This document shows positions 18,142 through 55,009 of a DNA stretch of 64,000 nt, piece after piece. Every line of letters starts with the position of its first letter. The stretch's first letter is position 1. The notes under the pieces are model-generated. The model saw nothing but the letters and a program-made list of their open reading frames with translations. It was not told the origin of the DNA and searched no databases. The stretch lies in NCBI GenBank assembly GCA_905178155.1, contig CAJINV010000001.1, forward strand, positions 1 to 64,000. The letters run 5' to 3'. The position numbers were made by a program, and so were the translations under genes. The stretch comes from Amoebophrya sp. A120 (Eukaryota; Protista; Dinoflagellata).

Positions 18142-18490
18142 CCGACACCGAGCGGGTAAATTATCGGCCTCCAAAGCCGTCTTGTGCTGTGAGGGTGTCG
18201 ATGACGGAGTGTGAGAGTTACTGGTGATTTGAGTGTCTCCCTTTCCAGAGTGTTGCAGCGACATAAAAATCCTGATGTTGAGAGTTCCTCGCGTCATTGT
18301 TCGCATGCCAGCACAAGGCTTCTTTACCTTTTTCAAAATAAATCCAAAAAGAAGAAGCAGAAGTTGTAGAGGAGATGAGTGTACTACATGCCGGCTTAGT
18401 TGTCGCTTTTGGTTTGTTACCTCTTCGATTCGGCGCGGCCGGATCGAGACATATTTCTCTATGGCCGCTCGCGGACCTAGTTTTTCGTCT
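18142..18490. repeat. ~350-bp direct repeat, copy 2
   Basis: Near-identical to 16921-17269. Confidence 0.95.
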
Positions 18491-21400: not shown

Positions 21401-21863
21401 TACGGTTACCACAGTTACCAACGATCGCAAGGCCAGACTTAGGTCTCTCCTCCTCTTGGAAGCTAATAATGGCAGGAATAAACTAAAAGCAAAAGCTACA
21501 TGAACGCGTTCCTCTGCACCCGCCCCGCTCTTTATTTTCAAAATCAACTTAAAACGAGAATCAGATGAACAATCCCAACTTATCATAAGATATGGTCGGA
21601 ACGAAGCGATACAGGAGGTGAACCTACTTTTAATCCTCGAGGCCGCACAAAATCCGTAGCGCCATATATTTTTTCAACTTCCAACCCAGCAGTAGTCTTG
21701 ATCTTGTATGCCCTCGCTCCGTGAATAGTTGTAATTCATCATATTTGTCTCTCGACAAAAAGCAAGGATTCTCATTACCTGCTCCATCCTGTGGAAATCT
21801 GTTGTCGGACACGTCAGCGACACCCAAAGAGCCGCGGGCCGGGGCCAAGCGCTGTTCCGCGGT

Positions 21864-34979: not shown

Positions 34980-37417
34980 ATGAACTCCCCCGAGGCGCTG
35001 GAGCGCGAGCTTGCGGCAACCGCACCGGAGAACTTTCCGCACGACCTGCTCCGGACGGCTATGCGAAGCGAAATCTTGTCTATGTATTGGTTGGACTAGT
35101 AAGGGACATCAGGGTGAATGTGAAAGGGACTTTTGTCACGCGTGAACTTCTGTGCATTATCAGCTTGTAGCTTGTACTACAACGAGGAGAACCTGATAAT
35201 TATGGAGATGAAGTACTAACTACACAAGGGTGGCACAAGAACGGCAGATGAGCTGTCTCACTGTGAACACATTTCTACTTCTCATTCTGCGATATATTAA
35301 ATTTCGCCCGCATAGCTCTTCCCGTGGCTTTCCTGTCGAAAAACGGTTACCGACTGGCGATCATGTTTTTCGTGGTGCATTACGTGATGTTTGCTGGCTA
35401 TTTGGTCTATTTTTCGCTCCCCGGGCCCTGGATGGTAGGCGGCCACGCGGAAGCGGTGCATTTTTTCTACACGCGCGGCATTGAAGGGGTCGAAGAACCA
35501 CCTCCAGGGGAACAAACACAGGACGGTTTCCGTCCTGTTGAGCGCCGATCTTTGTTGAGCAGCGATGCAGTTGAAGATTCATCGTCCCACAGCACTGATG
35601 TAGTTGATAGCACAACAACTTCTAGCCACGACGGCGGTACCTCAGCAGCCTCAGTCTTCCACGGCTTGGAAAAGCAGCGCGCCTACGACCACTACCACCC
35701 TTTTTCCGCGGGTTTTTGGAACGTGGACAAGGACAGTATGCGCGTGACCATCCCGGAACCGGGATCCACCACCATGGAAAAGACGGCGCGACGGCAGATC
35801 CACCTGTTTCACGTGCTGCACTTCCTGCTTTGGGGCAGCGTGCTTCTTGAGATTCTCTTCGTGTTCATGCTACTTTTGATCGTGAAAAAACAGAACAACA
35901 GTGCGGGCAACGTGTCTGTTTTACCCCCCGCTTGGGACCGTGTGGCCTTCGTCTTCGGCATTGTGGGCCGGTGCACGACCATCGGGGATGTGCTGTGTCT
36001 GTTCCGCATTTTCGTGGAGGACAGCGCCTTCATGCCCCTGTTCGTCGTGGTCGCGGTGGCTGCCGGAGTGTTTCTCTTCCTGCAAGTTGTCCTGCTACAG
36101 CTCCGCGGTCTCTGCGGGTTTTTATCCGAGGCCGACCGCTGCGACCTGGATAAGCCCGACCAGTGCCTGCCCATAGACCGCCTGTTCGGCGGGGGTTTGA
36201 TGAGCACTTCTGGTCGGCGCCCGTGCTTGTTGCTGCTTCTGTTACCGAGGAAATGCTGGCAGGGTGTTTCTTCGCTGGGTTTCAAGCTCCGGAAGCTTTT
36301 CATTCAGGGCTTGCGCACCGCAACCAGGACGTCGAGCAGTAGCACGACTACTGCCCGGGCTACAAGAAGTAACAGCAGCGGTGCCGCCAATTTATCTTCC
36401 GCCGAGCGGCAGACGCAGCAGCTGCTTCCGTTGCGAAACTTTGCCGATCCAGAATTGGGCGGCGGGGAAGCAGCTGCATCAAATGAGATGGCTGACGCTG
36501 AGGTTGATGGTGCTTTTTCTCCCGCGAGCAGCTCGTCTTCGTCACCGAGCCCGCACCGGGCACCGAGAGCAGCTGCGACGCCAGACCGCACAGGAAGTGG
36601 TGGAATTATTGCATCTTCTTCTACAACACCGGAGCAGCCTGGCACGGCCTCCCAGTGGTCGGGAACTACTACACAAGCAGCAGCGGGGGCAACAGCTCGC
36701 TCTCCCAGAACAAGCGGCGCTACCTTCGAAGAAGATACAGGAGACTCCTCTCGACTGCCGTCCCTGGTGTCGGACGACGACAATCCGCTGGTAAATTTCC
36801 TTCTAGCGACCAACAACACCGTGGTGCTGCGCCACGTGCTCCGTGCGCAGAAGTGCTGCGCGGTGGCGCTGGGTATGCAGCTGAATTTCGTGTACGCCAC
36901 CCTGCTGCGGCATTTCCTCCCCTACGCCGGGACGGAGGATCTGGAGTTTCAATTTGTCGTGCTGAATATGCATTGCAAAAGTATCGTACTAGTACAAATT
37001 GCATGACAAATTTTGGCAAGAAGGAAAGCGGAATTTGTAATGCTGTTTTGCCTTAGGAAAAACATATTTGCAATTAGTACGAGTACGATAGTTTTGCACA
37101 GGATACTGAATTTCACGCGCTGCTTGTCGCAGGACGTGGGACTGAGTTTATGCAAGGGCTTCTACTTATTGGACTTCGAATTCGACGTCTTCGTGCTGTT
37201 CTGCTTGATGATGAACCTACTCACCATCTCAAGCGGACTGCTGCTCAGTCAAAGCGACCGCATGTTGCATCACCCGGAAATAGAAATCTTGGAAGAGGAA
37301 TCTTCTCTGGCCCCTTGTAGATGGCCCTGCTGGAAAGTAAGAAATGCTGGCAGCAGGTGCTTTCTTGTTTGTCGTTTCTTCCTTGTTCTGACGAAAGGAA
37401 GGGAGATGAAGCAATAG
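34980..37417 (+). CDS. Multi-pass membrane protein of unknown function; exons 34980-35080 (tentative), 35320-36966, 37111-37417
   Basis: Several hydrophobic helices; ORFs 35324 and 37013 join in frame (VVL|NFTRC); 5' exon and 3' end are uncertain. Confidence 0.7.
35081..35314. mobile_element. Candidate highly decayed introner
   Basis: TATG...CATA ends and an internal TTTGTCACGC; removal plus 5 nt joins MNSPEALE...EILS|PVAFL in frame; TIR and DR otherwise lost. Confidence 0.4.
36967..37105. mobile_element. Introner family C, 139 bp
   Basis: Ends TATGCATTGCAAAAGTATCGTACTAGTAC and GTACGAGTACGATAGTTTTGCACAGGATA; DR CTGAA. Confidence 0.95.
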
Positions 37418-38124
37418 CAAGCAAGTTCTCGTCGTAGTTTTGCTCAAGAAGACATCAACATCGTTCGTACAAAAAAGTCATGTATCGGTGAAAGAGATTA
37501 AGATTAAGAATAAGATGTCCACGCGTACTTAGTAAAGTACCATCGGTTGGCTGGTGGAGGCATTCACCCAAAATGAAATTGAATTCGGTTGGTTTTCTAC
37601 TTATTTCGGTCGCTGGTGGAGGGTACGTGCACAACCGCGTGACAACACGACCGTTCAGAAGATGGCAACAAGCCACCCCGCGGCATTTTCGGTAGAGGCA
37701 AAGCTATGCAGGAACAAGCGAACACTCACACTGTCACTGTGCCTCTGCTTACGCTCCTCTCGGTTGTGCATGTTTGTTGTATTAACGTCGTAAGTACTAT
37801 CTACTCTAGTGTCATGCTCATGTCCTCGGTTCCGACAGATGGTGCTCGGTCGTCAATTCCCTCGTGCTCGTGCTTTGTCCACCACTAATCTGGCAAATGA
37901 ATTGCCACCACTCTGTGCCTACTTTTACCAAATACTTACTCGCGTACGCAGGAGATGTAGCAGTAGCTTGTCACTCCACTTCATCAGCAGCTTTCCATGT
38001 AGTTGTAGTAGCTTCGCTTTGTAAATTGTAAGTAGTTCCCCCTTGCATGATCCAGATCCTTTTTCGTTCATATAATAAATAGTGGAAAGCAGGAGTGCTA
38101 GTGCAGACACCCACGCGCAGAAAA

Positions 38125-40700
38125 ATGACGTTCACCTTCCATTTCGCCGGCGGCCCGGAGCAGCACGATTTGAAACAGCAGACCACGTATCAAGTGTAAA
38201 AATGTCTGGGTCTGTAAGAATGCAACTTGTCATGCTAAATCTGAAGCATGCAAAAATCTGTGCTGCATGATTACCAAAAGTCGTCCAGTTTTGACCAAGT
38301 CGCGAGGGAGTTTCTCATGCAGAATAGGCATGAGAGGGATCGCACAGAATCTGTCATGCTAGGTCCTGCATTCCAGACCTCATGGGTCATGGAAAAGCTG
38401 CATGACAAATCGCGCATTCTTCCAGACCCAGACACTTTTGCACTTGATACCACGGTCGGCTCTGGACCCCACCAGGTGGCGATTATCGACAGCCGGCACC
38501 TGGCGGCCAACCAGGCCATGGCGGAGGAAGTGGCGAAACGGCTCTGCCTGCGGGATGAAGACGTCCACGGGGACAAGAACTCCTGCACGGTCGTTTTGTT
38601 GATGCCCTCCGCGGAATCCCGGCCGGAATTCATCTCCTGTGCCGAGGTGGCTATGAACGCCCTAGAGGCAGCAACGTCGTTGTTGACGAAAGTGACCAGC
38701 ACTATGGAGGCGGAAAATAAGTCGGGCAAGGAAGTAGAGATGAACCCGACTGAGAAATTGAAAGTTTGCTGTCTGGACAGCTACTACAGTGACCCGGAGA
38801 TGGCGCTGAGGTACTTGCTGCTGCCCAGAAATAAAACATCAAACCCGGAAGGAGGTGGTGGAGAAAAAGACCACAAGCCTGTGAAAATTTACGGGAACCG
38901 GAAGCATTTACTCCAAATGTTCTACAAGTTTTTCAATGCCGCCTACAAACGGCGCGCCTTCACGAACACGGCCGTCGCGCACGGCTGGGAGAAGCAGCAG
39001 GACGCGATTGACACACTCCTGAAATTTCTCCGCACTGCGACGAAGGACGAAATCGTCGTGCCTTCGAAACTCGGAAAGCCGACCATGGTAGCCAACACGC
39101 CCAAGCTCGAAGACGCGGACGAGGAACCAGCTTTTGCACAAATGAAAGAGAAACACAAAAATCAGTGTTGCCCGCCGGGGCCGCACCGCCCCGCGATCTG
39201 GCATTTTCAGAAGGACGTCGCGGGCCTGACCAAAGAAGACTTCACCGAGAAGGTGGGCAAGACGCACTACATAGACAACGAGTACGTGGTACTGTTCTGC
39301 AGACCGAGTGATTTTTCCGCCGAGGAGAAGTACACAAAGTTCGTAAGCGCACTCTCGGAGTTGAATGACGCCCACATGGACAGCATGACGTTTACGGTGG
39401 TGATGGTCTTAGACGTATGCTGAGCAAAACCGTTCCCACCCCTTTAGGTAGTCAAGCCGCATCACAAATCCGGGACCTTATCGTTATCCTCATTCTACTA
39501 GCATGACAAACTACCCGATTTTTGCATTGGAAAATGGCCCTCATGGGGCTGCGCATGAGAAACATTTTAGGCATGCCACTTCGCACGACAAGGCTGAGAT
39601 TGTTGGGACGTTTTTCCAAAGGATAAGACGACCACGAAAAGAGCCCGCTCGACGCCTTCACGAAGAATTTTTGGTTTTTGCCCGTCATGAGTCGGTTGAT
39701 AAATTTCTGCCACTTGTGCATCTTCTGTTCAAAAAACGAAGAGGAGTTGTTGAAAGAAACGTTCGCACACGTTGGACAGACAGAGCACGTGGTGCAATTG
39801 TTGCAGCACAACTTGGTGCCCTTTCCGCGCCTCCACTTCCTGGTCACGATGTCCTGCGTCTCGCATCACGACCCTGGAGCCGGCTTACAGATTTTCGGGG
39901 AAAAAGCGGAAAGCGTCCTGCAGAAGCACGACGTGACCTCCAGCTGCGTGTCTTTCTGCGTCGCGAATACGAAAGAACTCACAATTTCGACAGGAGAAGG
40001 AGCGAGCGCAGCTGAGCATCATTTTCCAAAAGCCGCCGTGACCACGCAGGAAATTTTCGACTTTGACAGAAAACTGCGGGCGAAATTTGCCTGCACGCGT
40101 CGGAAATGCAGTCCCCTGGTCGTCCCGTCCGCCGGGCCGGAGCTCCGGCGTAAGTCGCACATTTTACGGCAGGTGGTGGTTAGCAGCAGCAGCTTTCCGG
40201 GCCTGAAACAGGTGTTTTTCCTCATGCCGGGGAAATTACTCGCGAAAAAGATGTTTTTCCCGCTGTTGAAACAGTTCTCCGACGACGAGTCGCTGGACCT
40301 GGACAATCCGCTGAAGTGGACCAACCCCGGGTTCGGGTTAGACAAGGCAAAAGCCAGTGCTTTAGACGACTTTGAACTGATGGAAGCCGAGTCGAGCTTG
40401 AACGATCTGCGGGCGGAGTACAGCCACCATTTTGGGGATTACGAATCCGAGTCCGAAAGCAGTGCCGAGGACAACGAGTATCTATCGGAGGACGAAATAA
40501 ATGCAGCACAGCACCATCATGCTGGTGGTGTGGGAAATACAAATAATAATGCGAAGCACATGAACATGAACTACAACAACAAAGACAACAAAGCCTTTAC
40601 CAACGCTGCAGCCTCGATTCGAGAAGAGTTTCTGCAATTTTCCCACGACATCGGGACCTGGAGCAAAAACTACCCGTTTGTCAAGTATCAAGCAAGTTGA
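38125..40700 (+). CDS. Highly divergent tubulin-like protein with a long N-terminal extension, 697 aa; exons 38125-38187, 38455-39415, 39631-40700
   Basis: NLVPFPRLHFL and ELMEAESSLNDLRAEY plus an acidic tail resemble beta-tubulin; no GGGTGSG motif; both introner removals are in frame. Confidence 0.7.
38188..38449. mobile_element. Introner family A, 262 bp
   Basis: Ends TATCAAGTGTAAAAATGTCTGGGTCTG and CAGACCCAGACACTTTTGCACTTGATA; DR CCACG. Confidence 0.95.
39416..39625. mobile_element. Introner, 210 bp
   Basis: Imperfect TIR TATGCTGAGCAAAACCGTTCCCA and TGGGACGTTTTTCCAAAGGATA; DR AGACG; fuses ORFs 38248 and 39678. Confidence 0.88.
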
Positions 40701-40847
40701 AGTTTTTCAATATCTTCATCCACTCTTTCTCATGCTTTTAGCTTTTACATTTCAGTGTTTCTATCGTCTTTGTTTTTTCTTGCACAGCACTTCACCTCCC
40801 TACCGGAAATCTTCAAATTTTCACACCACATCAGGCCGGCCCTTCTG

Positions 40848-41402
40848 ATGGAAGGGAGCAATCTCTTTCTCGCTTGCTGTGCGCCGAACTACGAGACCCG
40901 AACCAAAGCGATGAAGAAAGATCACGATGGTGAAGTTGTAACCACAACTGAACACGAAGCTGCGGACAATAAAGCCACTAACAAATCCTCCGTGGTCTGT
41001 TCGAAGGAGCGGTGGTTTCAGGTGGTGCAGAAGATTTGCGAGGCTCTGTGCTCTACACTGGAGGACCCACCGGAGCTGGAGACCGAGTGCACCGCGGAGG
41101 AGTTCGCGAAGACGGACCGAAATCAGGACGGTGTCGTCCAGGCCGAGGAGTTTTTGCACCACGTGTATCCACAGTAAATTTCCTCTACACGACGGCGTTG
41201 TACAAATGTGGCTTCTGCATGACAAACTTTTCGTCCTTCAAACCTCTTCCGCGTGGGAAGTTACTTGTGGTGCATTTTGTACGTGTGCGGGAAATTTGTA
41301 TTGCATAACGCGTTCGGGATACTGTGCTGTTTCAACAAAGTCCGGGAGATGGAGTGCATATCCGCCTTTCGGAAAGCAGAGGAAATGGTGCAGAAATTGT
41401 AA
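40848..41402 (+). CDS. EF-hand protein, ~135 aa; exons 40848-41165 and 41313-41402
   Basis: Canonical EF loop FAKTDRNQDGVVQAEEF; in-frame join HHV|FGILCC; start uncertain. Confidence 0.7.
41166..41307. mobile_element. Introner, 142 bp
   Basis: Imperfect TIR TATCCACAGTAAATTTCCTCTACACG and CGTGTGCGGGAAATTTGTATTGCATA; DR ACGTG/ACGCG. Confidence 0.85.
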
Positions 41403-42058
41403 ATGGTAGCGGATTAGAGAGCAGGTGCAGGACCACGACCGGCTTGATCTGTGCTATGAATTGAAGATCACAACGTGGACAAGACCTGCGCGAGCAGTAC
41501 TATACTTTATCAGATATACTAACATAAATGCTAATGCGCCGACAATGCAACTCTTGTCTTGTATGTCTTTGTACTCCTGTTTTCTTTTTCGAATATCTGA
41601 TGCGAATGCGATTACTGTAGCAGATTTTCCTCTCCTCGACCTGGCGCTACAAGCAAGAGTTCGTCTCTTCTGCAAAAGAGTATGTGGATGTGTATCGTCG
41701 AATGTGATAGTATCACGCCCGCGCACGCACACCAGCTGAAAAAGCTTCACCTCTTTTATCCAAGATAAAACTCAACAGCATTAACATAGATTCAAGCAAT
41801 TATATAATCCTCGCAATTGAAATCAAGCAATAGCAAGCTCGAGCTGAAAGATGAAGGCTGAGCGGAAGTCCGCGCCTGCGTCTAGAATTCTTCTTCTACA
41901 GTACCGCAATTTGTGTTCCCGATTGGTTCATCCACTTTGGCACTTTCCCAAAAAGTAGATCTCCCGAAAACAAGCCAAGCAAAACTACTTCCACACGCAT
42001 CGATCCATACTTTGCGAGTACTAGAAGCCAAACATGCATCACCACAAATCCGAAAACG

Positions 42059-43660
42059 ATGTTTCCTGCAGCACCGAGGCTTTTTTATCATCGCCATCCC
42101 GGTTTCTTCCTAGTACCGTGTCTGCTCTTTTCTGGCGCCAATTTCGGATCTTCTTCAGCAGTCCACGACGAGCATTTTCCCGGCCAGGGAAGAAGTCAAT
42201 CCTACCAGAGACCGCAGCTCATAGGCCTCAGAAACCGCAGTAGAAGTCCCAGGGCCTCGAGTCGACTGGTGTCTCCGGTTGTGGAAGAAACAGATGCAGG
42301 ACCACCAACAAGTGCCGGCGAAATACCAACAAGCGAACATGCACAAGAACAACATCAAAACGACGTTCCTGCTCCCCCCTCCAGCGCCATCCCTACCGCC
42401 CCACGACCCTCTAGCAGCACCTCCTCGCCCCGGCGTTTTCTCCGGCGGCTGCGGTTCCGGAATTTCCGCGATCGCCTGCTGCAACTGGCTAGACCCCTCG
42501 GCGAGGACTGCGTGCAGGTGGCGGACCCAACCTGCATGATCTGTTTGGACGACCTTGCACCAGGTAGTTTTGTAAACAACTGCGACAACCGCCCGGTCGC
42601 GCACTGCTACCACCGCAAGTGCTGGGAAACCTTCCTCGGGTCACGGTCGCCCGTGCTGGACCGCGCGCGCTGTCCGGTCTGCCGGGAATGGTCGGGAGAG
42701 GATGAATACAACTTTTTCGAGCTCCGCCGCAGTGGCGTCTTTCTCCCTAGAGGGTATTGGGACAGCGAAAATGGCAGCATTGTGTCAACCTCCGAACCGT
42801 TCGACCTGCTTGTACGGTTTTGCTCTCGCCTGTACTCTGGCGGCACGCCGGCGGAGATAGCGGCGCGCCGGTTCGAGAGGCAGGTCGCCGAGGAGGTGGA
42901 GTATTTGGAAGGTCGACCCTGGATGGCGATGTGGAGCAGCCCCTGCGCGCGCCGCCACTACTCGACGGGAGCGGGGCGGGCAGGGGGCGGGAATGGTGTT
43001 GATACTGCTAACGGTCAGCCATTTCACAACTACGTCGGGGCGACGCCGACGGTGCGCAGAAGCATGCTTGGCGGCGTTGTTGGAGAAGACTCTGGTCAAC
43101 AGTCTAGCGGTGGCTCATCCTCACGGTTCCTGCGCACGAGATTCATGCGAGGTGTGCAAGCACTGTGCTGTCGTAGGCGACGACATCTCCTTGCACGAAG
43201 AAGAGGTGCGAGCAGACACGAAGGAAATCAAGATGAATCCGATCAGGACCACGTAGATCTTCGTGACCGAAGATGCAACTACAGCCGTTTGCAAAAGCTC
43301 GCACAGAAAGGCGCTTTTCTCATTATCGGGGCGGGGCTCGTGTCGAACGCGGTTACAGCGACCGCACGGGAGACGGAGGATCACCTGCAAGGGCTACCTG
43401 GGAAGACACCTCTAACCCGACCGCAGCAGTGCGGCGTGTTGCTGTACCACCTGGCGCGGGGCCTGGCCGCCTCGGGCACGGGCATTTTTGTGGCGGACTT
43501 GGTACGTAAATGCAGACCTTCAACATATTACTCCTGCCCCCCGTTCAGAACAACTACAAGGGCTGCTAGAACTACTTCTGGCCCAGTTTTCATGTTATTC
43601 ACCACCAGCACTTCTCACCAGGGCACTGGAACGAGAAACTTGCTTTACGAAGAGCCGTGA
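42059..43660 (+). CDS. RING-H2 zinc finger protein (putative E3 ligase), 533 aa
   Basis: CMICLDD...C....HCYHRKC...CPVC; hydrophobic N-terminal and C-terminal segments. Confidence 0.8.
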   Translation: MFPAAPRLFYHRHPGFFLVPCLLFSGANFGSSSAVHDEHFPGQGRSQSYQRPQLIGLRNRSRSPRASSRLVSPVVEETDAGPPTSAGEIPTSEHAQEQHQNDVPAPPSSAIPTAPRPSSSTSSPRRFLRRLRFRNFRDRLLQLARPLGEDCVQVADPTCMICLDDLAPGSFVNNCDNRPVAHCYHRKCWETFLGSRSPVLDRARCPVCREWSGEDEYNFFELRRSGVFLPRGYWDSENGSIVSTSEPFDLLVRFCSRLYSGGTPAEIAARRFERQVAEEVEYLEGRPWMAMWSSPCARRHYSTGAGRAGGGNGVDTANGQPFHNYVGATPTVRRSMLGGVVGEDSGQQSSGGSSSRFLRTRFMRGVQALCCRRRRHLLARRRGASRHEGNQDESDQDHVDLRDRRCNYSRLQKLAQKGAFLIIGAGLVSNAVTATARETEDHLQGLPGKTPLTRPQQCGVLLYHLARGLAASGTGIFVADLVRKCRPSTYYSCPPFRTTTRAARTTSGPVFMLFTTSTSHQGTGTRNLLYEEP

Positions 43661-45038
43661 GCAGGTGGACAGATGACTGGTGCTACGTTTTGGAGCTTTG
43701 ATCTTAATGTTAGTCTTAGGGCCTTTATTACGCAGTACTGTACATAGTTTAGTATCTCTACAACATCAATTTCAATTTATTAGATATGCCCTTGGCTGGA
43801 TAGCTGCAGTTTCTGCTGCTGTCGGCGCCGGAACAACGAAGTGCCTGTATCCGCGGAGAATCCTCCTGAGAGAAGGAAGAACTTTCAAGCTTCCCGCTGC
43901 CAAACATGCATGCACAGCGATCCTTGTATGTAGTGCTACCCTGCTGCTTCGCCTTCCCCAACAAGGTGCTTGCATCGTGTAGACCGCAGCACCAGCTCGA
44001 GCAGCTTTTTTTCTTCCCTGACTCAGGATTCTTTGCTTACCCTGGATAGTACGATGACGTTGGAGAGGAGGACGAAGGCGAACGAAGTCCAACGACGTCG
44101 TGATCATGGTGCGCGACGTGCTAGCCTCGCGTCTTGCCAGCTCGACCGTAAAATTTTCCTGCAGAGTTTCAGTTTGCAGCTTCCGCACCGTAGATCTTGG
44201 CTCTGGGGGTGCAGCGTGCGCGGGGGTCGCCGATTGCGCACTCGTTCAAGTTCTCTATCCGCGACCTCCTTTAGCTTAGTGCACTATTCACATGCTTGGT
44301 TCATTCTTCCAACAAGGATAATGGATAGACGCTATATGTATGAATGTTGACGAGCATGCGTGCGCTGCTTGATGACCAATAAAAATGAATACTATACGTA
44401 CATAAAAATGAAAAATAGAAATACAACTTCGCTTTAATTTTTGTAATTTCAGGCGCCCGTCGCGGCCGTGTCCTCATCCTAAATGAAAATCTGACTGAAA
44501 CGCAAACATTATTCATTAGCATTGAGATGAAAGGAATCGCGTGTTGAAGGTGGCCCCTTCCTCTCTGGAGGACGATATCAACGAAAGATGAAGCAGGCTG
44601 TGAAAACCTTGACTTCAGAAAATCGGGGCGGAAGTAAGTACATCAGGTCTCACTTTTTTTGGAGCGGTAGACGAAACGGCGGCTTCTGGACATTTTTTGT
44701 TTTTTCTATCTGATCTTGGATTTTTGGCCGACCACTTACCACATAATTTGCGTACGCGACAAAAAAAACAAAACGCAAACACGAGCGAAGGAGAGTTTTT
44801 GCCCGTCGTTGCAAAGATGCAAAGCCAAATCTGCGTACTGTAACTGTGGACGGGCTGAGAGCTGGCGGTGAGCAAGCTGGAAGATGAAGGAGCTTTTTCT
44901 CTCTTTTTTGATAGGTGCAGCTTTTCATTTTTCCAATAAAAAGCCGCGAACCGCATACAGATCGATTCTAAAATACCTATACGTTCGTTTTTGACAGTCG
45001 AATTTCTTGAATCAAAATCTTTCGTAGTCGCCTGCATC

Positions 45039-48000
45039 ATGGACACATCCTGGCTCGATGCCAAATACGCGGCGCCACAGGATCTTTGGCAAGTGGAATC
45101 CGAGCCATTTATCCGCGGTCTGGTGCCACACCTACTGCAGCGGATTTTATCCACAAGTCCTTCCACGGTTGCGATTTCTTCACAATCAGCACGTTCTTCC
45201 TCGTCGGGAGGTAACTACGAGGCTGCTTCAGCAACAGCCAATTATGCAACTACAACCGCATCAGACGTCCACACCCTGGTCAAGTTGATCCACAACCCTA
45301 CGCTACGGAATGTGTTGTGGACTTCAACAGATTTTCCGCGTTTCTTCGCGGCGTTGGTAGACCAAGCTGCAGTGGCGGGGCTGCACGCGGGACCGGTGGA
45401 ATTGGGAATCATCGGCGCGGACCGCGAGGAGCTGCTTGAGCAGGGAACAACAAGTCGGACCTGCTCGAACATACCGACCGCGCAGCTGTGGCCGCTGCTG
45501 TTCTGTGTTACCTACGAAGCGGATTTAGTGGTCGACGGAAGTAGTCGTGGTTGTTCGGCTCCTTCAGGTGGAAACAAAAGCGCTGATCACGGCCCAGCCG
45601 CTGACACGACAAGCGGCGCGGCCCGTTGTTGGCGCGAGAAAACCCACAGTCCGCAAGTTGCAGTCACGAAGCTGGTCGCAGCCATTTTGCAAAGTTTCTC
45701 TTCAGTTGTTGTAGCGGCATCACCAGCCCCCACGTCTTCAACACGACCTTCGACAAGCAAAAACCACCAGACGGCGCAGCGCCAGAGCCTGGGTATTCTG
45801 GCAAACCTGCTTCGCGGCGACAGCGTTGTGCAGTCTTTTGTGAAGGCGGAGACGCAGCAGTACGATGAATTTTGCAGCGGATTGCACGCCATTGTGGCGG
45901 GGCGGGGCGAAAAACAATCAAATGCAGGAGGTGGGGGTGGAGCAGGTGGTTCTACTTCATTGCGTGGAAACAACTATGCTGCTTTGTCCTCTCCAGCACG
46001 ACGAGTAGCCGACGAAGAGATGGTCACGCAAAAGCTGTTCGCGGCCCAGATTCTGGTCTCGTTAGAGGGTATTGCGCAGTCCCAGCACGGAATTTTCGAA
46101 CCATTGCTCTCATCCACCAGTCAGTACTTGGCAGCTACACGACAAATCGATGGCGCAAATAAGCCGAACGCCGATCCTGGCAGCTTCCCCATCAACCTCG
46201 TCGATGCCACTCACTTGGCGTTACAAGTCGTCGATCTCCCCAACGCGCACTCTGATTGCATGGACGGCGTTTGCGTGTCCCGCTTCCAGATCGCACGTGA
46301 CTTACTCGACGATCTACTGCAAGTCTCTTCTAACGGGGTCGACCGGGCACTGGCTTCTTATACAATTATGAATGCGGAGGTGGGGAGGGCAACAACTACA
46401 ACTTCTCCAATCGGGCTCGGGATGTTGAGGAAAAAAGACAGTCTACAAATGGAGCTGGAACTCCGGTTAGCAAATAACCTCGGCTCGTCGCCGCAAAGGG
46501 TAGAAGGCGAGAGTAGTTTCAACTACTTGAACAGCGACAAGAACTTCAGCGTCGACTACCACCTTGCGCTCTTTGAGCAGCTGCACACCTTCCAGAACAC
46601 GGACCACGTGCTTCAGGCGATTTTGTCCTTGTTGGAAAAGGTGTTGGTCGAAAAGTCCGCGCATTTCCGGCAGAACGTGGTGAAAATGCTGTCCGAGCAG
46701 GAGTGTAAAAGCACTACTGGTGGTGCAAATAAAAATAGGCACGCATCGCTGCTGGCCGAGCTGGCGACCAGGCAGCACCCGGGGGTGAGTAAAGCCGCGG
46801 CGCGCTTGCTGTATCTCACCCTGTTCGACACGAACCGCGTCGCGCTCACCGAGTCAGCTTTACGCCCGTTGCTCTTGTTCCTGTCTCGCCAAGCGTTACA
46901 GAACGAGGAAACCTGCGGCTTGTTGAAACTGATGGTGCAGAAGAGGGTGACGCCCTACGCGTTGGCGGTCTGTCGAGACCAGTACCAGTTACTGCTGCAA
47001 AACGCGAATCGGGTGTTGGAGAAAAAGCCGACAAACACAAATTTATTCTTCAATCTGCTGCAATTAGGCCTCGCCATCGACGACGCGCTCGCGAAAGAAC
47101 GGTGCGACCGGGCAACCACGGTGCACGACATCATGAAGCACGAGCCTGGGGTTAGTGCGGGTGCGGGAGCAGGTGGACATGATCAAGTCCCACTAGTAGG
47201 AAGCAACTCCTATGCCACACCGGGTAGTGGCGCCACAGTCGCTGACAGTGAACAATTTCTTGCGTCGCCACAGGCACAGCAGCGGTCGAAGCATTCGGCT
47301 GCACCAAGCAGTTCGTCATCGAGCGCGGCGTACGCTGGAATAGCCAATTATACCCCCGATCAACATCTGATGTTGCTAAACACAAACTCCGCAACGAAAT
47401 CCACTACACATTCCGTTTTTCACCAAAATCAGGATTCGACACTACTAGAAACATCAGCAGCTTGTTCCCATGCCACTACGCCCAGTTGCACCTCCCGAAA
47501 TAGAACACTGCCAGCTGCAAAAACTACTAGTAAAGTCGTCCTTCCGTACACCAAGCCTGCGTTTTACGAGATGCTGGAGTCCACGGAGTGCGTTTCCTTC
47601 CTGATCTACGACATTTTTGCGCACACAACCGACCAAGTCTTGCTGCGCGACTGCTGGCAGTTTCTGCGATTACTCGCGGAGCCCAGCTGCTGTCTGCCCG
47701 AGCAGGTGAAAAGCGCCGTCGTCGACGCGATGATGAGGAGAAACGCGGAAGCAGAAAAGAATAGATTACTGGTAAACGCAAAAGTCGACAAGGAGATTGT
47801 GTTCAATCTAAATCAGAAACTTGAAGCTGCCGCGCTGGAGCGGGAGAAGCTGCTGCAGGAAGCTGCCCGGAAGGACACGACATTGAAGCAGCTCACCGAA
47901 TCCATCCGCACGTGCGCCCGCGACATCGCGAAGCACGGCGAAACGCTGGGGGAACTGGGACGCGCGCGGGAACGGATCGCGAATCTGGAGGAAGTTGTGG

Positions 48001-49372
48001 TGGAAAAGGAACAGGAAAAAGATATGGGACTCTCAAACGTTACATTCTCAACTGTTACATGAATTTGTCATGCAAAAATAGCGCCAGCATCTACATGCCC
48101 AAGCTGCTTCGCATGACAAGTTCTCGACGCGCTAGATAGCATTATAATCTGCTCCAAACCTGTAATGCAAAAGGCGCAACGTTTTCCCTTGCACTTTTGC
48201 CATTCTTGCATTACAAATTTCATGTAACAGTTGAGAGTGTAACGTTTGAGAACGCCATAAGAGACGTCGCCCGCATCGCGGAAGCCGACGCGCGCGTGTT
48301 GTGTCAGAAACTCGAGTTTCACGCGGAGCGGGAGGTGCGGCAAGCGACGGAAAGATTGGAAGAACATGTCCGTGAAAAGGCGGAGCTGTGGATATGCATT
48401 GCAAAATTATCGTACTAAGTATGAATTGCAATACAAATTTTTCCAAGTGACGAGCCGTAGTTTGTAATGCAGATTTCCCTTTTAGGCCAGAGATCTGTCA
48501 TGCAGGACTGCAGTCAGTATTTTGTGCGATACATTTGCACAGGATAGTGGAAACTACTTGCCGACTTGGAGGAAAAGATCAAGGCGGCACATATCAACTG
48601 CAAATATGTCATCTGGGTCTGGAAACTTGTGATGCAAACCAGGGAATACTGGGCGTACTGTCATACGTGGCCAAGCATGGCAAGTTTTTGAGGTGCTATG
48701 TGTAGCGTATTCCGCATGGCAGACTGCGCTTTTGCATGACAGACAAAGCGATCTTTTTGCACCTACGCATGACAGAGGTCCGAGTCATGTCAGACACGCA
48801 TGACAAATTTGGCAATCTTCCAGAGCCAGACATATTTGCAAAGCATAGCACAGGTCGACCGGCAATTGCTCGTGAAACAACTCGACGTAGTGATGCAGGA
48901 AAATCAACACTTGCGGATGGGCTACGACAACTTCGATCCGGGAAAAGTCGCACTGAAGGGCACCTTCTCGCCCCGAGAGGAACCACCGGTTTCTTTGTTC
49001 GGGGGCTATCATCAATTTGGAGGTACAACAAGTATGATCTCGCCCAAGAGCAGGAGGACCAATGGTGCAAATAACAGCACCAAACCTGCGACGTTTGCGA
49101 CAGGGGGAAACAACTCGAACTCGAACTACAAGACGAGTAGCAAGAGCGGCGGAAGCGGCAGGGGGAGTGTAAAAAATATCGCAAATAATTCGTCCAAGCC
49201 GCGGGGAAATCACTTGTTTTTTCCGGAGGACGGGACAAGAAAGACAAAGGACTCGGGTCGTTCTTTTGCGGGAGTTCGTGGGTCTAGTACTTCAAGAGAT
49301 GAAATGAATTTTCAGGCGGGAAGCAGCCATTTGCCACGCTATGCCGATCAAATGTGGAACAAGAATCCGTGA
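45039..49372 (+). CDS. Armadillo-like plus C-terminal coiled-coil protein, CIP2A-like, 1223 aa; exons 45039-48022, 48265-48392, 48552-48591, 48853-49372
   Basis: LGILANLLRGDSVVQSFVK and RDLLDDLL resemble CIP2A N-terminal segments (recalled, not searched); heptad-rich C-terminus stays in frame across three introners. Confidence 0.7.
48023..48259. mobile_element. Introner family D, 237 bp
   Basis: ~45-bp TIR starting TATGGGACTCTCAAACGTTACATTCTCAACTGTTACATGAA; DR AAAGA/AGAGA. Confidence 0.95.
48393..48546. mobile_element. Introner family C, 154 bp
   Basis: Ends TATGCATTGCAAAATTATCG and CGATACATTTGCACAGGATA; DR GTGGA. Confidence 0.93.
48592..48847. mobile_element. Introner family A-like, 256 bp
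   Basis: Ends TATCAACTGCAAATATGTCATCTGGGTCTGGAA and TTCCAGAGCCAGACATATTTGCAAAGCATA; DR GCACA. Confidence 0.93.
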
Positions 49373-51026
49373 CAGAATCTTCTTCCCGCAATATTAAACC
49401 CTCGAGTGGATAGTTCTTCTGCTTGGAACTATGGCTCGGGAGGTGATCGGGCTCGTGAGCCACGACCATGATAGATCTACCACCTCAACATTCGCGTTGT
49501 TCAGTAGGAACAAACGGAAAGCAGGTCGTGGTAGATCTTGATCGAGGCAGGAAGAAGCAGAAATGTTGCTGTAGATAGATGCATGTATGATCATGATGTC
49601 GAAAGAAGAAGATGAAGAATCGATCTGCAGATTTTTCGAAGTAGTGCAGATTCAGGGCTGCAGCCTGGAAAAAATGCCAGTCGCTCTATCAAGGTTTTCT
49701 TATGCACGAAGTAAACGTCGTGTGTTCCGGAAGCAGAAGATACAGAATGTTTCGCTGCTACTTTATTTTCCGGCACTGTCAAAAACAAAATCAAATTCAA
49801 AGCAGAAGGATCCATGAATATCTCGAACCAAAGAAAAACTTAAAGACTAGACGAGATACAAATGAATAAAAGAAATCCCGTAGTACAACGGTGGAGCCAT
49901 CAGTTTCAAGTTGTCGTGTATTATACCAGCATTGCTATGCTACACCAAAACCAAAATCTTTCAGAGGCGGAAAAAAAAACATAGTCTGAAGGATGTGGAC
50001 TAGCACTTTCTTTTAGACAATGAGACTACGAGACAATAAATGAAAAGCGGCATATCAGCACTGAAGATTTTGTTCCACCTGTTTTACAAAGATAGTTCTT
50101 CCGCATCCGGTACCTTTACCTAGAAGAAGTAGACAAATACGTACGACTGCAAGTTAAAGTTTGTCGAACAGACAGGTCGTTTTGCCCGATAGCGATACAT
50201 ATCGCGATCCAAGATCGGAAGGCAGAAGAGGCAATACACTTCATTCCGCTAATATAATCGGAACTGTCCTCTTTAACCAAAGGCCTCTATTCGGAAACTT
50301 GTATGTCGGTGCTGTCACTGTTTACAGATAGTACATGAGTAGCTTGTTTTGGTCAAGACTGACGCCCTACGCATTAAATTGGTTTCATCTACTTCCTCAT
50401 CCGCGTATTTCCGTCCTGCCAGAAGTGTTTTGATAAACACAAGAACTATTCACATTCACATTCACACTAAGATACCACCACTTTTTTTTCAGTTTTATCC
50501 GTGCCCACTTCTGATATACTTTGTTTGCCACATCTGAAGTAAAAACTTTACGGAATTGTTCTGGATTTCCCAAGGCGACACAGGTTTTGTCGCGCATGTT
50601 GTATGACTCATCAAATAATTGATTCTACTTGTAGTAGCTCGTGCTTTTTCATCGTCGCTTTTTTTCTATTTTCAAGTTGTGGCAGAAAAGAGTAGCGTTC
50701 ATTCTTTCTGTTGCGCCTAGAGGATAACACATATGCGGCAGAATATGATCCTCTGATCACACGGAAAAGTTAAATAGAGCCGCCGCGAAGTAGAAGATTC
50801 TTGATGGCAGAAGAACATGCGGTTGTTGGCAAATCATCTGCGAGAAATTAGAATAAACCATTTCATCATATTTTTTTCCTAACCAAGAACCCTGTACTAA
50901 GTACAAGAACGACCTGTTGTGTACAAAATCAAGAAAGCGAAAGCGATTGTTTCACCGATAATTATCAAGAAAGCGAAAAGGAAAACTTGTTTCATCACCA
51001 ATACTACACACAAAAAACTTGTAGCC

Positions 51027-53696
51027 ATGGTGCGTGGTCCTTATGCTAAGCCCGTTCTGAGACAATCACAATTTTCCAATTCTGAACACGAGCATTCGAG
51101 CAACAATTCTCGCAGAACACAACAACAACTCCTCGGAGGTGTACTACAGCCTACTAACCTAAAGGCAGCTGCTGCTTCAACATTGTCCACTAGCAGTGTA
51201 GCGACCATGTCGGCCCGTCGCGGAGCTACTACTTCTACCCCACCAGGCACAGCAGGTGCCCCAAGAACGACCTCCACGAGGACTACTACGTCGAAGAACC
51301 ACCGCCCCGCAGCTGCAGGAGCCTCTCAGTCGACCTCCGGACAACATCATGTTGGTCAACATCTGGCACAGTTCCCCTCGGAGCAGGCGTTACGCATCAG
51401 CCGCGAAAACGTCGCCGCGCTGGACAAAAGAATGCAGCAGCAGGAGGTGGAGCTTGGCGCTGGCGCGCAGGATTTGGATTCTGAGGCTGCAGGAGCAGCT
51501 GTTATTAACAACAAGACTGGCACCATTGGCACAACAACTTCTTCTTCTACCCCCCTATCATCAACTTCCGTCTCCGTTCCGCAGCCGACGTTCTTTTCAC
51601 TGACCGTGGCGGAACGAGTGTTGCTGACGGATTACTATAGCAGTAAGCTGTGTCACTGTTTTGTTTTTGATGAGAAGAAGATGCACGCCCTGGCGAAGCG
51701 GAAGCGGTTTTCCTGCACCAGCATATCAAGTGCAAAAATGTCTGGGTCTGGAAAAGTGTAAACTTGTCATGCAGATTTTCCATGACCCATGAGGTCTGGA
51801 ATGCGGCTCGTAGCATGACAGACTCTGCGACGAGGTCTCTGCCATGCCTATCCTGCATGAGAAACTCCACCCTAACTTGGTCAAAAGTGGACAGCTTTTG
51901 GGAATCACGCAACACAGATTCTTACATGATTCAGATTTACCATGACAAGTTGCACCTTCCAGACCCAGACATTTTTGCATTTGATACAGCAAGGACGAAG
52001 ACGACCGTATCGCGTCGGAGGAGGCGAAAATCCAGGCTCTGCTCCACCGCTGCCGCAAGCTGCGCGAAAGCATGTCGGCCGCCGCTCTGTACTCCGCGGT
52101 GGTGCTGTTTCGCGCGTACGCGGCGCGCGTCTGCATCCCCGCGGACGATGAGGAACAGTGGGTGGTTGCACTGTTGACCGCGATCCTTGTCGCCATGAAG
52201 GCGGAAGAATGCGTGATCAAGCCCGAGTTCATCAAGGGCCTCGGCCTGCAACTTTTCGAAAATTATAACTATGATAATACGTCAAACGAGGACGAAGAAA
52301 CCGAAACATTTTTCAAAAATCGTGGTGGAGCGGCTCCTGCTAGTCGCACTAGAACAAGCGCAACTGCGGGTGGACCTCCGACTACTAGTACGGCAACAAC
52401 CACAGAAGCAGAACAGACGTCGCCCTCTTCTATGGCGTTTGTTTACTCTGGAGGACTACTTTCTGATCTCCTACAGCGTCTGTCTGACAATGGTGACAAG
52501 GGTGAACAACAAGGACTTCCACCTGGCCCTGCAGGTGGTGCGGCTAGTAAGAACCACGACGGAATGAAAATTTTAAACCACCAGACGAGCGAAAATGCTA
52601 CTTCTATTGCTATTGCCCGGGTCACGGAGTTTTGTTGGCAGAAAGCAGTCGAGAACGAATTGAACTTCCTGACCGCCCTGAATTTCCAAATTACTGTGGA
52701 AAAACCCTTCGCGGTCGTTGCGTTACTCCAGGAAATGGCGGAGCGGGAGTGGATATGCATTGCAAAAGCATCGTACTAGTAGAAATTGCATTGCAAATTA
52801 CCTCAGCATGACAAATGGAATTTGTCATGCTGTTTTACCTTGGGATGTAGATTTGTAATGCATAACTGCAATTACTACGAAGACGAACGAGTACGATATT
52901 TTTGCACAGGATAGTAGATCCAGGACATCATCATGAACGATCCCCCGAAAAAGGCGATCGAGCAGAAGATAAAATCTCTCCGGTTCAAACTGACCGCGAA
53001 GCAGATCATCTCCGCTGCCATCCTGGATGAGGCACTGTATTGCCCCGTCAAGCTGATTATGAATGAAGCAAAAGTACAACGATCACGCTACGAGTGTTGT
53101 AGATAAGTAGCATCTTCACAAATTTTTTCTGAAGTAGGAAAAATTGAATTTGTAATGCTGATACCTAAGACTAGCCAGATTTGATGTCATGCCTAACTGC
53201 AAAACTTACTACCACGAGAACAAGTGTGATACTTTTGCAAAATTGCATACTGATCGCCCTGGGACTGTTCATCTCCACCGGTCATCGCATCCCGGCCGAA
53301 GCCAAAGTTGCGCTGCAAGGGAAGCCGCAGGACGTCGCCATGGTGAAGCGGATCGTGAGCAAAATTCAGGCATTCGCCGCGATGAGTGCCCCCGGCGGAG
53401 TTGTGACATCGAACGGCAGCAGCTCAACTGCGGGCGTGGCGGTTCTGAAGGAATTTCCCTACGCGGGGTTCTATCCGAGGATCGCGGGCAAAAAGTTGTC
53501 CGTCGAAGAAAAACAGTTGGATCACGTGATGAAAAAGACCCGAGGCAAAAGATTTTTACCAGGAAGTAGAAATAAGAGCACAGCTGCGGGCTGGAAGTCG
53601 GTGAAAAGGGGAGCTGCAACTGGTGCGAGTCGGGCAGCTGGTGATGCCAGTTCAGCGACGTGTCCGACCTCGACGGACCACTGCTTATCAGGTTGA
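51027..53696 (+). CDS. Cyclin H-like transcriptional cyclin, 679 aa; exons 51027-51723, 51992-52753, 52919-53057, 53255-53696
   Basis: Cyclin-box segments LTVAERVLLTDYYSSKL, SAVVLFRAY, TAILVAMKAEE, ENELNFLTALNFQITVEKPF, LYCPVKLIALG. Confidence 0.8.
51724..51986. mobile_element. Introner family A, 263 bp, inverted relative to 38188-38449
   Basis: Ends TATCAAGTGCAAAAATGTCTGGGTCTGGAA and TTCCAGACCCAGACATTTTTGCATTTGATA; DR CAGCA. Confidence 0.96.
52754..52913. mobile_element. Introner family C, 160 bp
   Basis: Ends TATGCATTGCAAAAGCATCGTACT and AGTACGATATTTTTGCACAGGATA; DR GTGGA/GTAGA. Confidence 0.94.
53058..53249. mobile_element. Introner, 192 bp
   Basis: Ends TATGAATGAAGCAAAAGTA and TACTTTTGCAAAATTGCATA; DR CTGAT. 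Confidence 0.9.
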
Positions 53697-54068
53697 TTTT
53701 TGGTTCGACCGAGGATCGTCCGGATCGAGCAGCAGCCATGGAAGATAGTTCTGTCAGATCATTGAAGATATTAATTGGAAATAAACTTATTCTTGGAAAC
53801 ATAGATCAGTATGAAAAATTCGTGTTCTTGGATTTAAAACTTTGGATACTTCAGTAAAAGTTTATTTCGAATAGAAAATATTATTGGAACATGATGTTAG
53901 TTCCACTTGGAGCACCATTGGCATGCGGAGGTACAACAAAGCCTGGTAATGTTTGATATCGTTAACGAAAACATAGAACGTAAATAAGGTGACCGCTAAA
54001 ATGGAAATCCGAAAAAACAAAAACGTGGAAACGTAGATATTTTGAACGGTCCTCATCGCCCTTTGGAG

Positions 54069-55009
54069 GTGCGGGTTTCCACGAGGAACGATGGACAACC
54101 AGGGAACGATGCACAACCGCCAAGCCCCGGCCCCCCTTGGCGGCTGCTTGTTCTTTCTTGCAAACCCTCGGAAGCCTGTTCCCGCTATTCCCCAAGCTCC
54201 GCCCGGCGCTTGCCGCGGCCGGGCCGCGCAAAATGCTGGCGCGCCGCAACCGCCCCGGTGCGCCTTCCTGCTCTCCGGAGGCGCCATCGGCTGCCGGGCA
54301 AAGAGAAGAGGTCGCCGGCGGGCGGGCCAAAAGGAGGCGCGAATAGCCCGGCCCCGCCCGCGCAGGCGCGAAGGCTGGGGCTTTGGGCCCGGGAAGGGCG
54401 TCGCGAGGCAGCGGGGGCAGCTCTAAAGGCAAAAGGAGCCCGCGCCCGCGCCCCTCGAATGGGGCGCAGTCCCGGGGGCGACAAAAAACGCAGCGGGGCG
54501 AAACCACACGCCCAGGCCGCGACGCGGCCTCGCCGCTGATGGCCGTTCCCCATTCTTGGGTCGCTTCAAAAAAGTAGGCGCGCCAGAAGGCGCCCCGGCC
54601 TTTCCTTGAGATAGGCTGTCTGGCGGTTTCGCCAATGGGCCTCGAGGCAATGCACGGGGTCCGTGCTGCCGCGGTAAAAATGGCTTTGCGGGGGTGCGGA
54701 GGGGTTCCGGATGGTGTCCCTTGCGGTGTGGCGCGTCGCTCGGGAAAATCATCCAGGCGATTAGCCCGCAGCGCCATCTCCTTGCCGCCCTCATGGGGGT
54801 GAGTGTGCGTCGTGCTCCGTGCCGTGCAGCTGACAGCCATAAAGGAGAGGCCATGCGCAGGGGGCCCCATATCAACTCACGATTGGCCGCGACTTGGCAA
54901 AAATGAATTTTGCATCCGAAAAATGTCGGAAATGTCGCCTGCAATACCCATCGGGCGATTCCTCTCCAACTTTAGTGCGGGTTTCCACAAGGAACGATGG
55001 ACAACCAGG
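54069..55009. repeat. GC-rich ~870-bp block flanked by a 35-bp direct repeat
   Basis: GTGCGGGTTTCCACrAGGAACGATGGACAACCAGG at 54069-54103 and 54975-55009. Confidence 0.85.

Follow-up and report, generated by a model that had tools for sequence, protein, structure and literature searches.

The 64,000 nucleotides analysed here (the window; positions 1 to 64,000 of contig CAJINV010000001.1 of Amoebophrya sp. A120) contain two genes, hosts A and B, that are each interrupted by a copy of one introner family, F1, with terminal inverted repeats (TIRs) and a target site duplication (TSD); the two copies, elements A and B, lie in opposite orientation (Table 1). Both hosts read on the + strand, as the preliminary description had it, and their frames, which it took to be intact, are so only once the element and one TSD copy are excised. 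For host A, this excision yields an open frame of 846 codons on the + strand against 224 on the - strand, and in the unspliced sequence stops fall inside the element although the 267 nt concerned are a multiple of three. The spliced translation of host B equals, letter for letter, the annotated protein P0001, and P0001 and P0002 show 100% identity to Amoebophrya sp. A120 proteins, which identifies this strain as the host organism. At E 0.001, no Pfam family was matched by host A (two exons scanned), by the host B exons or by proteins P0001-P0003; the host B product is cyclin-like by an Atlas score of 0.89, which we treat as a lead only. A further F1 copy interrupts an HslU gene at residue 275/276, within a conserved motif; the exons on either side align to solved HslU over 229-275 and 284-354, and an exon of 8 residues closes the gap. 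An independent homolog can be aligned with protein P0003 over two TIR-intron junctions.

Table 1. Host genes, F1 elements and TIR introns of the window (k, register; X1-X4, RNA-like contig runs).
Feature	Position	Strand	Description
Host gene A, transcript	37737-41817	+	846-codon open frame; three TIR introns and one GT-AG intron
Host gene B	51027-53693	+	679-aa protein P0001; three TIR introns
Element A, F1 introner family	38188-38449	+	262 nt; TAT...ATA TIR of ~37-50 nt, non-coding interior
Element B, F1, inverted relative to A	51724-51986	-	263 nt; host on + strand
Left TSD of A, CCACG	38183-38187	+	right copy 38450-38454
Left TSD of B, CAGCA	51719-51723	+	right copy 51987-51991
Intron A, inferred -1/+4 register	38187-38453	+	GT..AC, 267 nt; own junction ambiguous, 7 registers
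Intron B, inferred -1/+4 register	51723-51990	+	AT..GC, 268 nt; own junction ambiguous, 6 registers
F1 copy in HslU gene	31675-32104	+	A's orientation; extra T-rich insert; removed in 4/4 runs
Divergent F1 copy	48592-48847	-	B's orientation; removal inferred arithmetically (166 letters between listed contig pieces)
F1 copy	63112-63371	+	A's orientation; from sequence comparison
Old TIR intron, decayed TSD	35059-35318	+	unique junction C-TAT...ATA-GCTC; X4 joint 35058->35319, both=0, one contig
Old TIR intron, decayed TSD	14993-15206	+	unique -1/+4 register; annotated protein P0002
Old non-canonical intron	14176-14575	+	unique solution A-TAT...ATA-ACTT; annotation-based
TIR intron, TSD mismatch at position 4	41165-41311	+	mRNA retains left copy (X1-X3); k 4-6
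TIR intron	52753-52917	+	right TSD copy, if exonic, gives a TAG stop; k 3 or later
TIR intron, decayed TSD	57581-57804	+	k 4 or 5 only

Alignment of the two copies bears out the earlier statement that the interior of element B is the reverse complement of element A, with 223 of 265 alignment columns identical (84%). When 30 nt were trimmed from each end, A and B matched at 167/205 columns in opposite orientation versus 125/227 in the same orientation, and A matched its own reverse complement at 126/231; the interior as well as the TIRs thus sets orientation. The pseudo-peptide that had been noticed on both strands is indeed present, on + in the ORF 38245-39423 and on - at 51547-51915, and is translated element DNA, no protein. 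A search for TAT..ATA elements whose 5-bp TSD is perfect and whose TIRs match at 13/20 positions or more gave 12 in the window and none in any of 10 local shuffles; five of the window's elements are copies of F1, a repeated family. With their TIRs, TSDs, short length and non-coding interior, A and B have the makeup of miniature (MITE) or other non-autonomous TIR DNA transposons; no transposase family was found among 50 sequences scanned, and an Rfam search of the 64-kb window gave no match. A TGTCATG/CATGACA-like motif lies inside all seven elements checked, and stops occur within 38 of 40 elements whose length is a multiple of three. The TIR pattern, a TAT start followed by ~7 variable nt and an A-run, is that of A120 introners. 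The element class is already known (Farhat 2021), and what is new here is the cut register, fixed by junctions with decayed TSDs.

In cDNA-like contigs, precisely the element and one TSD copy are missing at both A and B. The RNA-like runs are unstranded contigs from one study; that they derive from RNA is our guess, which the absence of GT-AG introns from them supports. Junction A (38181->38449, skip 267) occurs in three of four such runs, X1-X3, which represent one sample, X4 having no contig across host A; the contigs that carry it also lack the GT..AG intron 40685-40834. Junction B (51718->51987, skip 268) occurs in one of the two RNA-like runs there (X1, record 4), the listed pieces of X4 not bridging the site. 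A raw-read RNA run, X9, contributed 9 reads only at the window. The tolerance of both orientations claimed in the preliminary description therefore holds in these contigs, as does its claim that no canonical site is used: a U2-type GT-AG or GC-AG pair, or GA-AG, is available in any register at 0/12 junctions. An AT-AC register is possible at 1/12, at neither A nor B, so that U12-type AT-AC termini do not apply to the two copies. Inspection of A and B for an AG or a pyrimidine tract revealed none, and GT..AG at the -1/+4 register is present in 6/132 host-oriented elements and GY..AG at any register in 8/132. Removal from RNA at non-GT-AG borders, as seen in the cDNA-like contigs of this one study, is what has been described for A120 introners.

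Since a perfect TSD leaves several registers open, the register can be read at junctions where the TSDs have decayed, and for A and B it is carried over from those. All 10 constraining junctions permit an intron of the form N-TAT...ATA-N4, one of them through a TAC variant (T-TAC at 13026), and three permit it exclusively; of these unique junctions, two are known from annotated proteins rather than reads and the third from a single contig. For 14993-15206, the -1/+4 register was predicted in writing before the search and then matched by P0002. Beside the junctions in Table 1, the register is k 3-4 at 14609, k 2 or later at 48022 and k 1-6 at 57105. The likely splicing code is accordingly a cut 1 nt before the 5' TAT and 4 nt after the 3' ATA. 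Such a cut takes 1 nt from the left TSD copy and 4 nt from the right one, together one full TSD, so that the original mRNA results wherever the element sits and whatever its phase or length. An excess of phase 0 at this register (61:25:34 of 120; in the window 5:5:4) was dropped as evidence for it, as a palindromic C..G target preference yields the same. A candidate element at 57106-57800 proved to be two introns, wrongly joined across an exon of 60 nt, which voided a second advance prediction. At intron position -2, A outnumbers T (45 versus 17, p 0.005 uncorrected), a weak hint only.

We counted orientations in a related assembly, of which 14 of 64 parts (161 loci, without RNA) were scanned with an exact 23-mer pattern that favours conserved copies. 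This gave 269 elements, 209 with a perfect 5-mer TSD; the counts exclude 23 of them, whose TSD copies matched at no more than 3 positions. The false merge 57106-57800 sits among the 154 rows behind the orientation, G.U and fold counts, and similar merges may exist. The F1 cluster has 147 members, and among 83 copies with a host strand called by a model (60/143 uncalled) sense and antisense insertions stand at 42:41, or 30:28 and 19:15 at stricter thresholds. Neighbouring copies, which need no host call, are in opposite orientation in 12 cases and in the same orientation in 11, and both orientations occur in 8/11 other element clusters. Removal is blind to element orientation. Of the symmetric recognition proposed at the outset, this part stands; on the RNA, though, the cut has a polarity, and the element is orientation-blind because either of its ends can act as the 5' end. 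Similarly, the supposed absence of directional signals is right for canonical donor and acceptor sites, but the 5' N-TA acts like a directional donor signal, which the TIR supplies at either end.

Several known systems resemble these introns. The A120 introners of Farhat 2021 (PMC7789003) share the TAT and A-run, an inverted-repeat hairpin, a length of ~240 nt and RNA-supported removal, with direct repeats of 3-5 nt there and 5 nt in A and B; the text of that paper leaves the border position unknown, states that a splice signature is not evident (Fig. 3 legend) and, in the parts consulted, has no count of element orientation, whereas here the orientation count is balanced and the register is -1/+4. 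The nonconventional introns of Euglena (N3CDG...CH'GN5-6|R; PMC12501133, PMC11282704) likewise have a paired triplet near their ends, fixed unequal spacers, no GT-AG and a suspected MITE origin. Their signature is absent here: the triplets are TAT/ATA instead of CDG/CH'G, the spacers are 1 and 4 instead of 3 and 5-6, and the lineage is unrelated. The Euglena code also has R at the first exon base, while no purine requirement is seen here (TSD position 5: A34 C23 G47 T28). A terminal stem with fixed spacers is common to both, judging from predicted folds and the register, which likens them in how they work only. Introners of Micromonas, Aureococcus and others with TIRs and TSDs (Huff 2016, as covered in PMC10228655; Gozashti 2022, PMC9860276) are DNA transposons that leave the mRNA unchanged and have been reported in both orientations, but they carry or co-opt canonical sites and show orientation biases, neither of which applies here. 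Introns of the tunicate Fritillaria, according to the accounts in PMC11282704 and PMC13326754, are MITE-derived and mostly non-GT-AG, with an altered spliceosome and changed splice-site recognition; theirs end in AG-AC or AG-AT, whereas the introns studied here have no fixed terminal dinucleotides and are positioned relative to a stem.

We place about even confidence in the proposal that elements A and B leave the RNA as hairpins, excised by a relaxed spliceosome whose cuts fall 1 nt before TAT and 4 nt after ATA. The TIRs, the TSDs, the high copy number and the lack of orientation bias are observed, and insertion would have been by DNA cut-and-paste, with a transposase making a 5-bp stagger. 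Both orientations would fold into a long terminal stem, since a hairpin remains one when reverse-complemented; the predicted fold of the ends is strong in each (A z -10.1, B z -8.7). Among the old introns that lack a TSD, 4/5 folded are predicted to pair end to end, with 10-18 expected pairs versus 0-3 in seven canonical introns; such pairing is not predicted for the 13026 intron, and at 14609 it is off the TAT/ATA register. One and the same step may read the 5' site and the nearby canonical G-TA(Y) donors, with less stringency at +1; the 3' site may be fixed by how far it lies from the foot of the stem and not by AG. All seven canonical introns examined here begin G-TA, which the 5' N-TA echoes. 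Single terminal-base changes in the two outer pairs, in 10 host-called elements, fall six times in the 3' arm and never in the 5' arm (binomial p ~0.03), an asymmetry that covers 10 of 22 variant elements, all putative introns, the uncalled L021:1494 and window 957 leaning the opposite way below threshold. Donor, branch region and 3' end would lie within a stem of 30-50 bp, a poor fit to standard spliceosome chemistry. The want of an AG and of a pyrimidine tract at A and B also tells against a relaxed spliceosome, as do the G.U/A.C and strand-fold counts given below. As described in PMC7789003, A120 keeps U2, U4, U5 and U6 and nearly all spliceosomal proteins, U1 being undetected and minor snRNAs absent; Table S4 of that paper gives nine predominant sites per strain: those of A120 all have N-T at the 5' border and differ at the 3' border, and those of A25 all begin TT. 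The TAT may merely be a transposase end motif, a point against a relaxed spliceosome.

The same hairpin and the same -1/+4 geometry could instead be served by a dedicated structure-specific endonuclease, with joining by an RNA ligase, or else by a step akin to back-splicing, as has been proposed for Euglena; we regard this main rival as possible, at clearly lower odds. A fixed stagger around the stem foot, with neither AG nor a +1 G, would suit it, and spliceosomal signals would be hidden by the stem. The comparable Euglena code has led its authors to suggest non-spliceosomal factors and circular products (PMC12501133). Against it stand the N-TA shared with every canonical donor examined, the +2 T in the predominant sites of both strains (A120 and A25) despite their differing TIR ends, and a 5' arm that appears sequence-constrained beyond pairing.

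It is improbable that a TIR-binding protein, transposase-derived or of the host, marks the two ends, on DNA or on nascent RNA, and guides the cut, the hairpin being a by-product of the TIR. The motif common to the elements checked would suit it, and so would the behaviour of F1, whose stems have G.U and A.C pairs at 95:107, without bias. Over all elements the ratio is 219:189 (p 0.15), and the transcript-strand fold is the more stable in 81/151 elements; neither the G.U/A.C nor the strand-fold test supports RNA-level selection in F1. Stems of non-F1 elements, however, lean to G.U (124:82; per element 38:21, p 0.036), the cut is polar relative to the transcript, and the same register and end-to-end pairing persist in old introns whose TSDs have decayed and whose family resemblance is slight.

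The remaining explanations fare worse. A strong hairpin with flanking direct repeats is a recipe for template-switch artefacts, so that the joined forms, known from cDNA contigs only, could be reverse-transcriptase products over the strong hairpins and 5-6 nt repeats at A and B, the genes being truly disrupted. This is very unlikely: the junction 35058->35319 has no repeat and yet the same register, the exons around the split HslU motif rejoin the HslU alignment, P0003 follows its homolog over two such junctions, and the unspliced frames contain stops. Still harder to credit is excision at the DNA level, or absence of the elements from the strain that supplied the RNA, an empty site being identical in sequence to the spliced form, since an X5 DNA contig enters A unbranched for 40 nt (the other three A/B ends are entered for 24-26 nt, below the 31-letter bar) and RNA contigs with 0 other letters over kilobases lack every TIR intron that they cross, including old TSD-less ones. 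Cryptic or edited GT-AG sites in one or both orientations are just as implausible, although A begins GT at the -1/+4 register and RNA editing exists in A120 (Table S5 of PMC7789003), because the joints remove exactly the element and one TSD, no GT-AG register is available at A or B, and the editing described in that paper affects 2-4% of intron borders.

Returning to excision by a stem-guided cut at -1/+4, we lean, if only slightly, towards the view that A120 has a second splicing code, N-TAT/stem/ATA-N4, matched to the 5-bp TSD, by which any TAT-ended TIR element, wherever it inserts and in whatever phase or orientation, may become an intron that leaves no trace. The machine would measure the stem, be it a U1-less spliceosome or a new nuclease-ligase, would have an origin separate from the Euglena code, and would amount to a general transposon-neutralising system in an alveolate. 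About 65% of A120 introns are non-canonical, their borders and mechanism being left open in the published account (PMC7789003), and a fixed -1/+4 rule makes both testable. The rule accounts for the irrelevance of orientation and, as the 1 nt and 4 nt removed sum to the length of the duplication (5 bp), for the tolerance of tens of thousands of insertions. Amoebophrya would thereby offer a second lineage, unrelated to Euglena, in which stem-defined splicing can be compared.

Copies A and B, two members of the introner family F1 that lie in plus-strand host genes, are inverted relative to one another, as the preliminary description had proposed. Aligning A with the reverse complement of B gives 223 identical columns of 265, and the trimmed interiors match at 167 of 205 positions in opposite orientation versus only 125 of 227 in the same orientation; the pseudo-peptide described as common to both copies is present. 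Twelve elements of this type with a perfect target-site duplication (TSD) occur in the window, versus none in 10 shuffles. The finding on A and B is real, and the element class is already known; the termini agree with those of the A120 introners in Farhat et al. 2021 (PMC7789003). Unrelated families share an internal TGTCATG/CATGACA-like motif (in A, B and the elements at 32156, 36967, 48023, 48592 and 63112), which often faces inward about 40 nt from each end and is a candidate protein-binding site.

Features of the window and junctions that constrain the cut (TIR, terminal inverted repeat; register 4 is -1/+4)
Feature	Position	Sequence or register	Remark
Copy A	38188-38449	TATCAAG...TTGATA; perfect 5-bp direct repeat CCACG	262 nt
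Copy B	51724-51986	TATCAAG...TTGATA; perfect 5-bp direct repeat CAGCA	263 nt
F1 copy	31675		A's orientation
F1 copy	63112		A's orientation
F1 copy	48592		B's orientation
F1-like element	957-1205	TAT...ACA; perfect TSD CCTGC	Open frames across it on both strands
Second family	48023-48259		Opposite to next; interior score 89 reverse vs 17 forward
Second family	63759-63996	End ACA, not ATA	At window edge
Short family, about 140-190 nt	32872-33021, 36967-37105, 48393-48546, 52754-52913, 53058-53249
Short-family-like interior fragment	33061-33147		Inside canonical GT-AG intron
Short-family-like interior fragment	53140-53165		Inside another element
TSD-less TIR element	18581-18729		Region open on minus strand only, after excision
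Degenerate array	61900-62600	Unit AAAAGTGATGGCCAAGGAGCTC-like	Direct and inverted repeats
GC-rich stretches	16952-18330, 54050-55010, 1300-8000		Repeated ends, e.g. arms 16952/17071/18173; motif near 54075 and 54980
Lipase class 3 domain gene	21735-24749		E 1.7e-11
RING-finger-like gene	41855-43660		E 8e-4, below curated cut-off
HslU ATPase gene	about 30600-34701		Three TIR introns, several GT-AG introns, micro-exons about 47 and 29 nt
Junction	35058->35319	C-TAT...ATA-GCTC	Unambiguous; one contig
Junction	14176-14575	A-TAT...ATA-ACTT	Unique; protein P0002
Junction	14609	Two-way solution, -1/+4 among them	P0002
Junction	13026	T-TAC...ATA-GAAC	P0002
Junction	57581	Registers 4-5	Protein P0003
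Junction	57105	Registers 1-6	P0003
Junction	41165	Registers 4-6	Contigs
Junction	48022	Register 2 or later	Contigs, by record arithmetic
Junction	52753	Register 3 or later	Contigs; stop created if right TSD copy kept

Both copies are removed in cDNA-like contigs. The four contig runs X1-X4, whose RNA status was guessed, cover 64-70% of the sequence words in the searched region and behave as cDNA: four GT..AG introns are missing from them, and the listed pieces contain no other letters. Junction A (a skip of 267) was seen in X1, X2 and X3, which represent one sample, its gene lying outside the coverage of X4; junction B (a skip of 268) was seen in X1 record 4 and is unbridged among the listed pieces of X4. 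Run X5, which behaves as DNA, extends unbranched 40 nt into A and enters the remaining three A/B ends for 24-26 nt only. Contigs with junction A also lack the plus-strand GT..AG intron 40685-40834, which fixes the strand of host A. That of host B is indicated by an open frame of 527 codons on the plus strand versus 138 on the minus, and by P0001, the sole protein retrieved with its second exon (100% identical, labelled Amoebophrya sp. A120), to which the in-silico spliced translation is equal over all 679 residues. Since RNA data of the contigs' kind probably underlie this annotation too, P0001 was not counted as independent of the contigs. The longest frame is on the plus strand in all six window genes covered by RNA-like contigs. 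Canonical splice sites are absent from the non-canonical junctions: a GT..AG, GC..AG or GA..AG register was found at 0/12, and an AT..AC register was available at one.

A pattern scan of a related assembly yielded 161 loci, with copies about 70-94% identical to A. They contain 269 distinct TAT..ATA elements, of which 209 have a perfect TSD and 37 a 4/5 match; the other 23 were dropped. Loci were judged from DNA alone, host strand being called after excision by a codon model trained on the window genes, which was right in 95, wrong in 2 and silent in 52 of 149 leave-one-gene-out trials, called 0/43 non-coding positions, and gave a strand for 138/246 elements, with 94 calls agreeing and 2 disagreeing inside single loci. 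No orientation bias was found, bearing out the proposed indifference to orientation: under model-called hosts F1 lies 42 times as A and 41 as B (60/143 uncalled), or 30:28 and 19:15 under stricter cut-offs; adjacent F1 copies are opposite in 12 cases and alike in 11, and both orientations occur in 8/11 other clusters. The short family scores best in one shared orientation for all five window copies, and 9:8 across its whole cluster.

A perfect TSD conceals the cut and a decayed one exposes it. The expected junction peptide for 14994-15202 was written for each register before the search, and annotated P0002 reads the -1/+4 version. Register 4 (N-TAT...ATA-N4) is the sole register common to all ten constraining junctions; the cut is fixed and polar, -1/+4 at the diagnostic junctions. 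The 1 + 4 = 5 flanking bases taken out amount to exactly one duplication, and the removed lengths fall evenly into the three frames (55:52:47). The rule predicts T at +2, as in all nine predominant A120 sites of Farhat's Table S4 (PMC7789003), to which aligner preferences may contribute. A literature search that most subscription papers lay beyond turned up neither an orientation count nor a fixed register for the introners of Amoebophrya; the figures of PMC7789003 may bear on both. The canonical intron at 40685 starts GTATCAAG, as copy A does when read in the -1/+4 register. At L077:1597-1876, a locus of the related assembly, a TAT..ATA element lies between 8-bp direct repeats, not 5 bp.

Long terminal stems are predicted for A and B (z -10.1 and -8.7), and in 4/5 old introns lacking a TSD 10-18 end-to-end pairs are still expected, versus 0-3 in seven canonical introns, the 13026 intron being the exception. 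In F1 stems G.U pairs are not in excess (95:107), and only 81/151 elements fold better on the transcript strand; both results speak against the stem acting at the RNA level. Elements outside F1 lean to G.U (124:82). Canonical introns start G-TA in 7/7 cases and G-TAY in 6/7. A single terminal base is changed in 22 elements, 10 of which have a called host strand: in these, all three 5' changes are at +4, and six of seven 3' changes at partners of +2 and +3. One further element agrees via its neighbours and two uncalled ones lean the opposite way; these small numbers suggest that the 5' TA is recognised by its sequence. Removal is indifferent to orientation, as first claimed, but the claim that it uses no directional signal was partly wrong, since the cut is polar and the 5' TA seemingly read.

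LTR-integrase-like enzymes leave duplications of 4-6 bp. The elements would arrive by DNA transposition, and the LTR-integrase-like homology noted for A120 TIR elements (PMC12130899) is a lead to such an enzyme as their transposase. The predicted hairpin would be used in removal and the catalyst could be a relaxed spliceosome, to which we give about an even chance. It is favoured because the TA donor is shared, T stands at +2 in the predominant sites of both strains (A120 and A25), and the A120 spliceosome has a near-complete protein set with U1 undetected (PMC7789003). A dedicated nuclease-ligase, by analogy with that proposed for Euglena introns (PMC12501133), may act instead, which seems less probable. 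Direction of removal by a TIR-binding factor is improbable, and equally so, taken together, are RT artefact and empty-site or cryptic-site readings; artefact is unlikely because in HslU a conserved motif is interrupted by an element, the exons on either side being colinear with solved HslU, and because the alignment of P0003 with a homolog runs through two junctions.

The resemblance of the fragments at 33061-33147 and 53140-53165 to the short family's interior suggests introner decay or conversion. The GC-rich stretches gave no Pfam match and are possibly other mobile elements. Other introners that use canonical sites are reported to insert either way round (PMC10228655, PMC9860276). What the analysis of A and B adds is a specific, testable splicing code.
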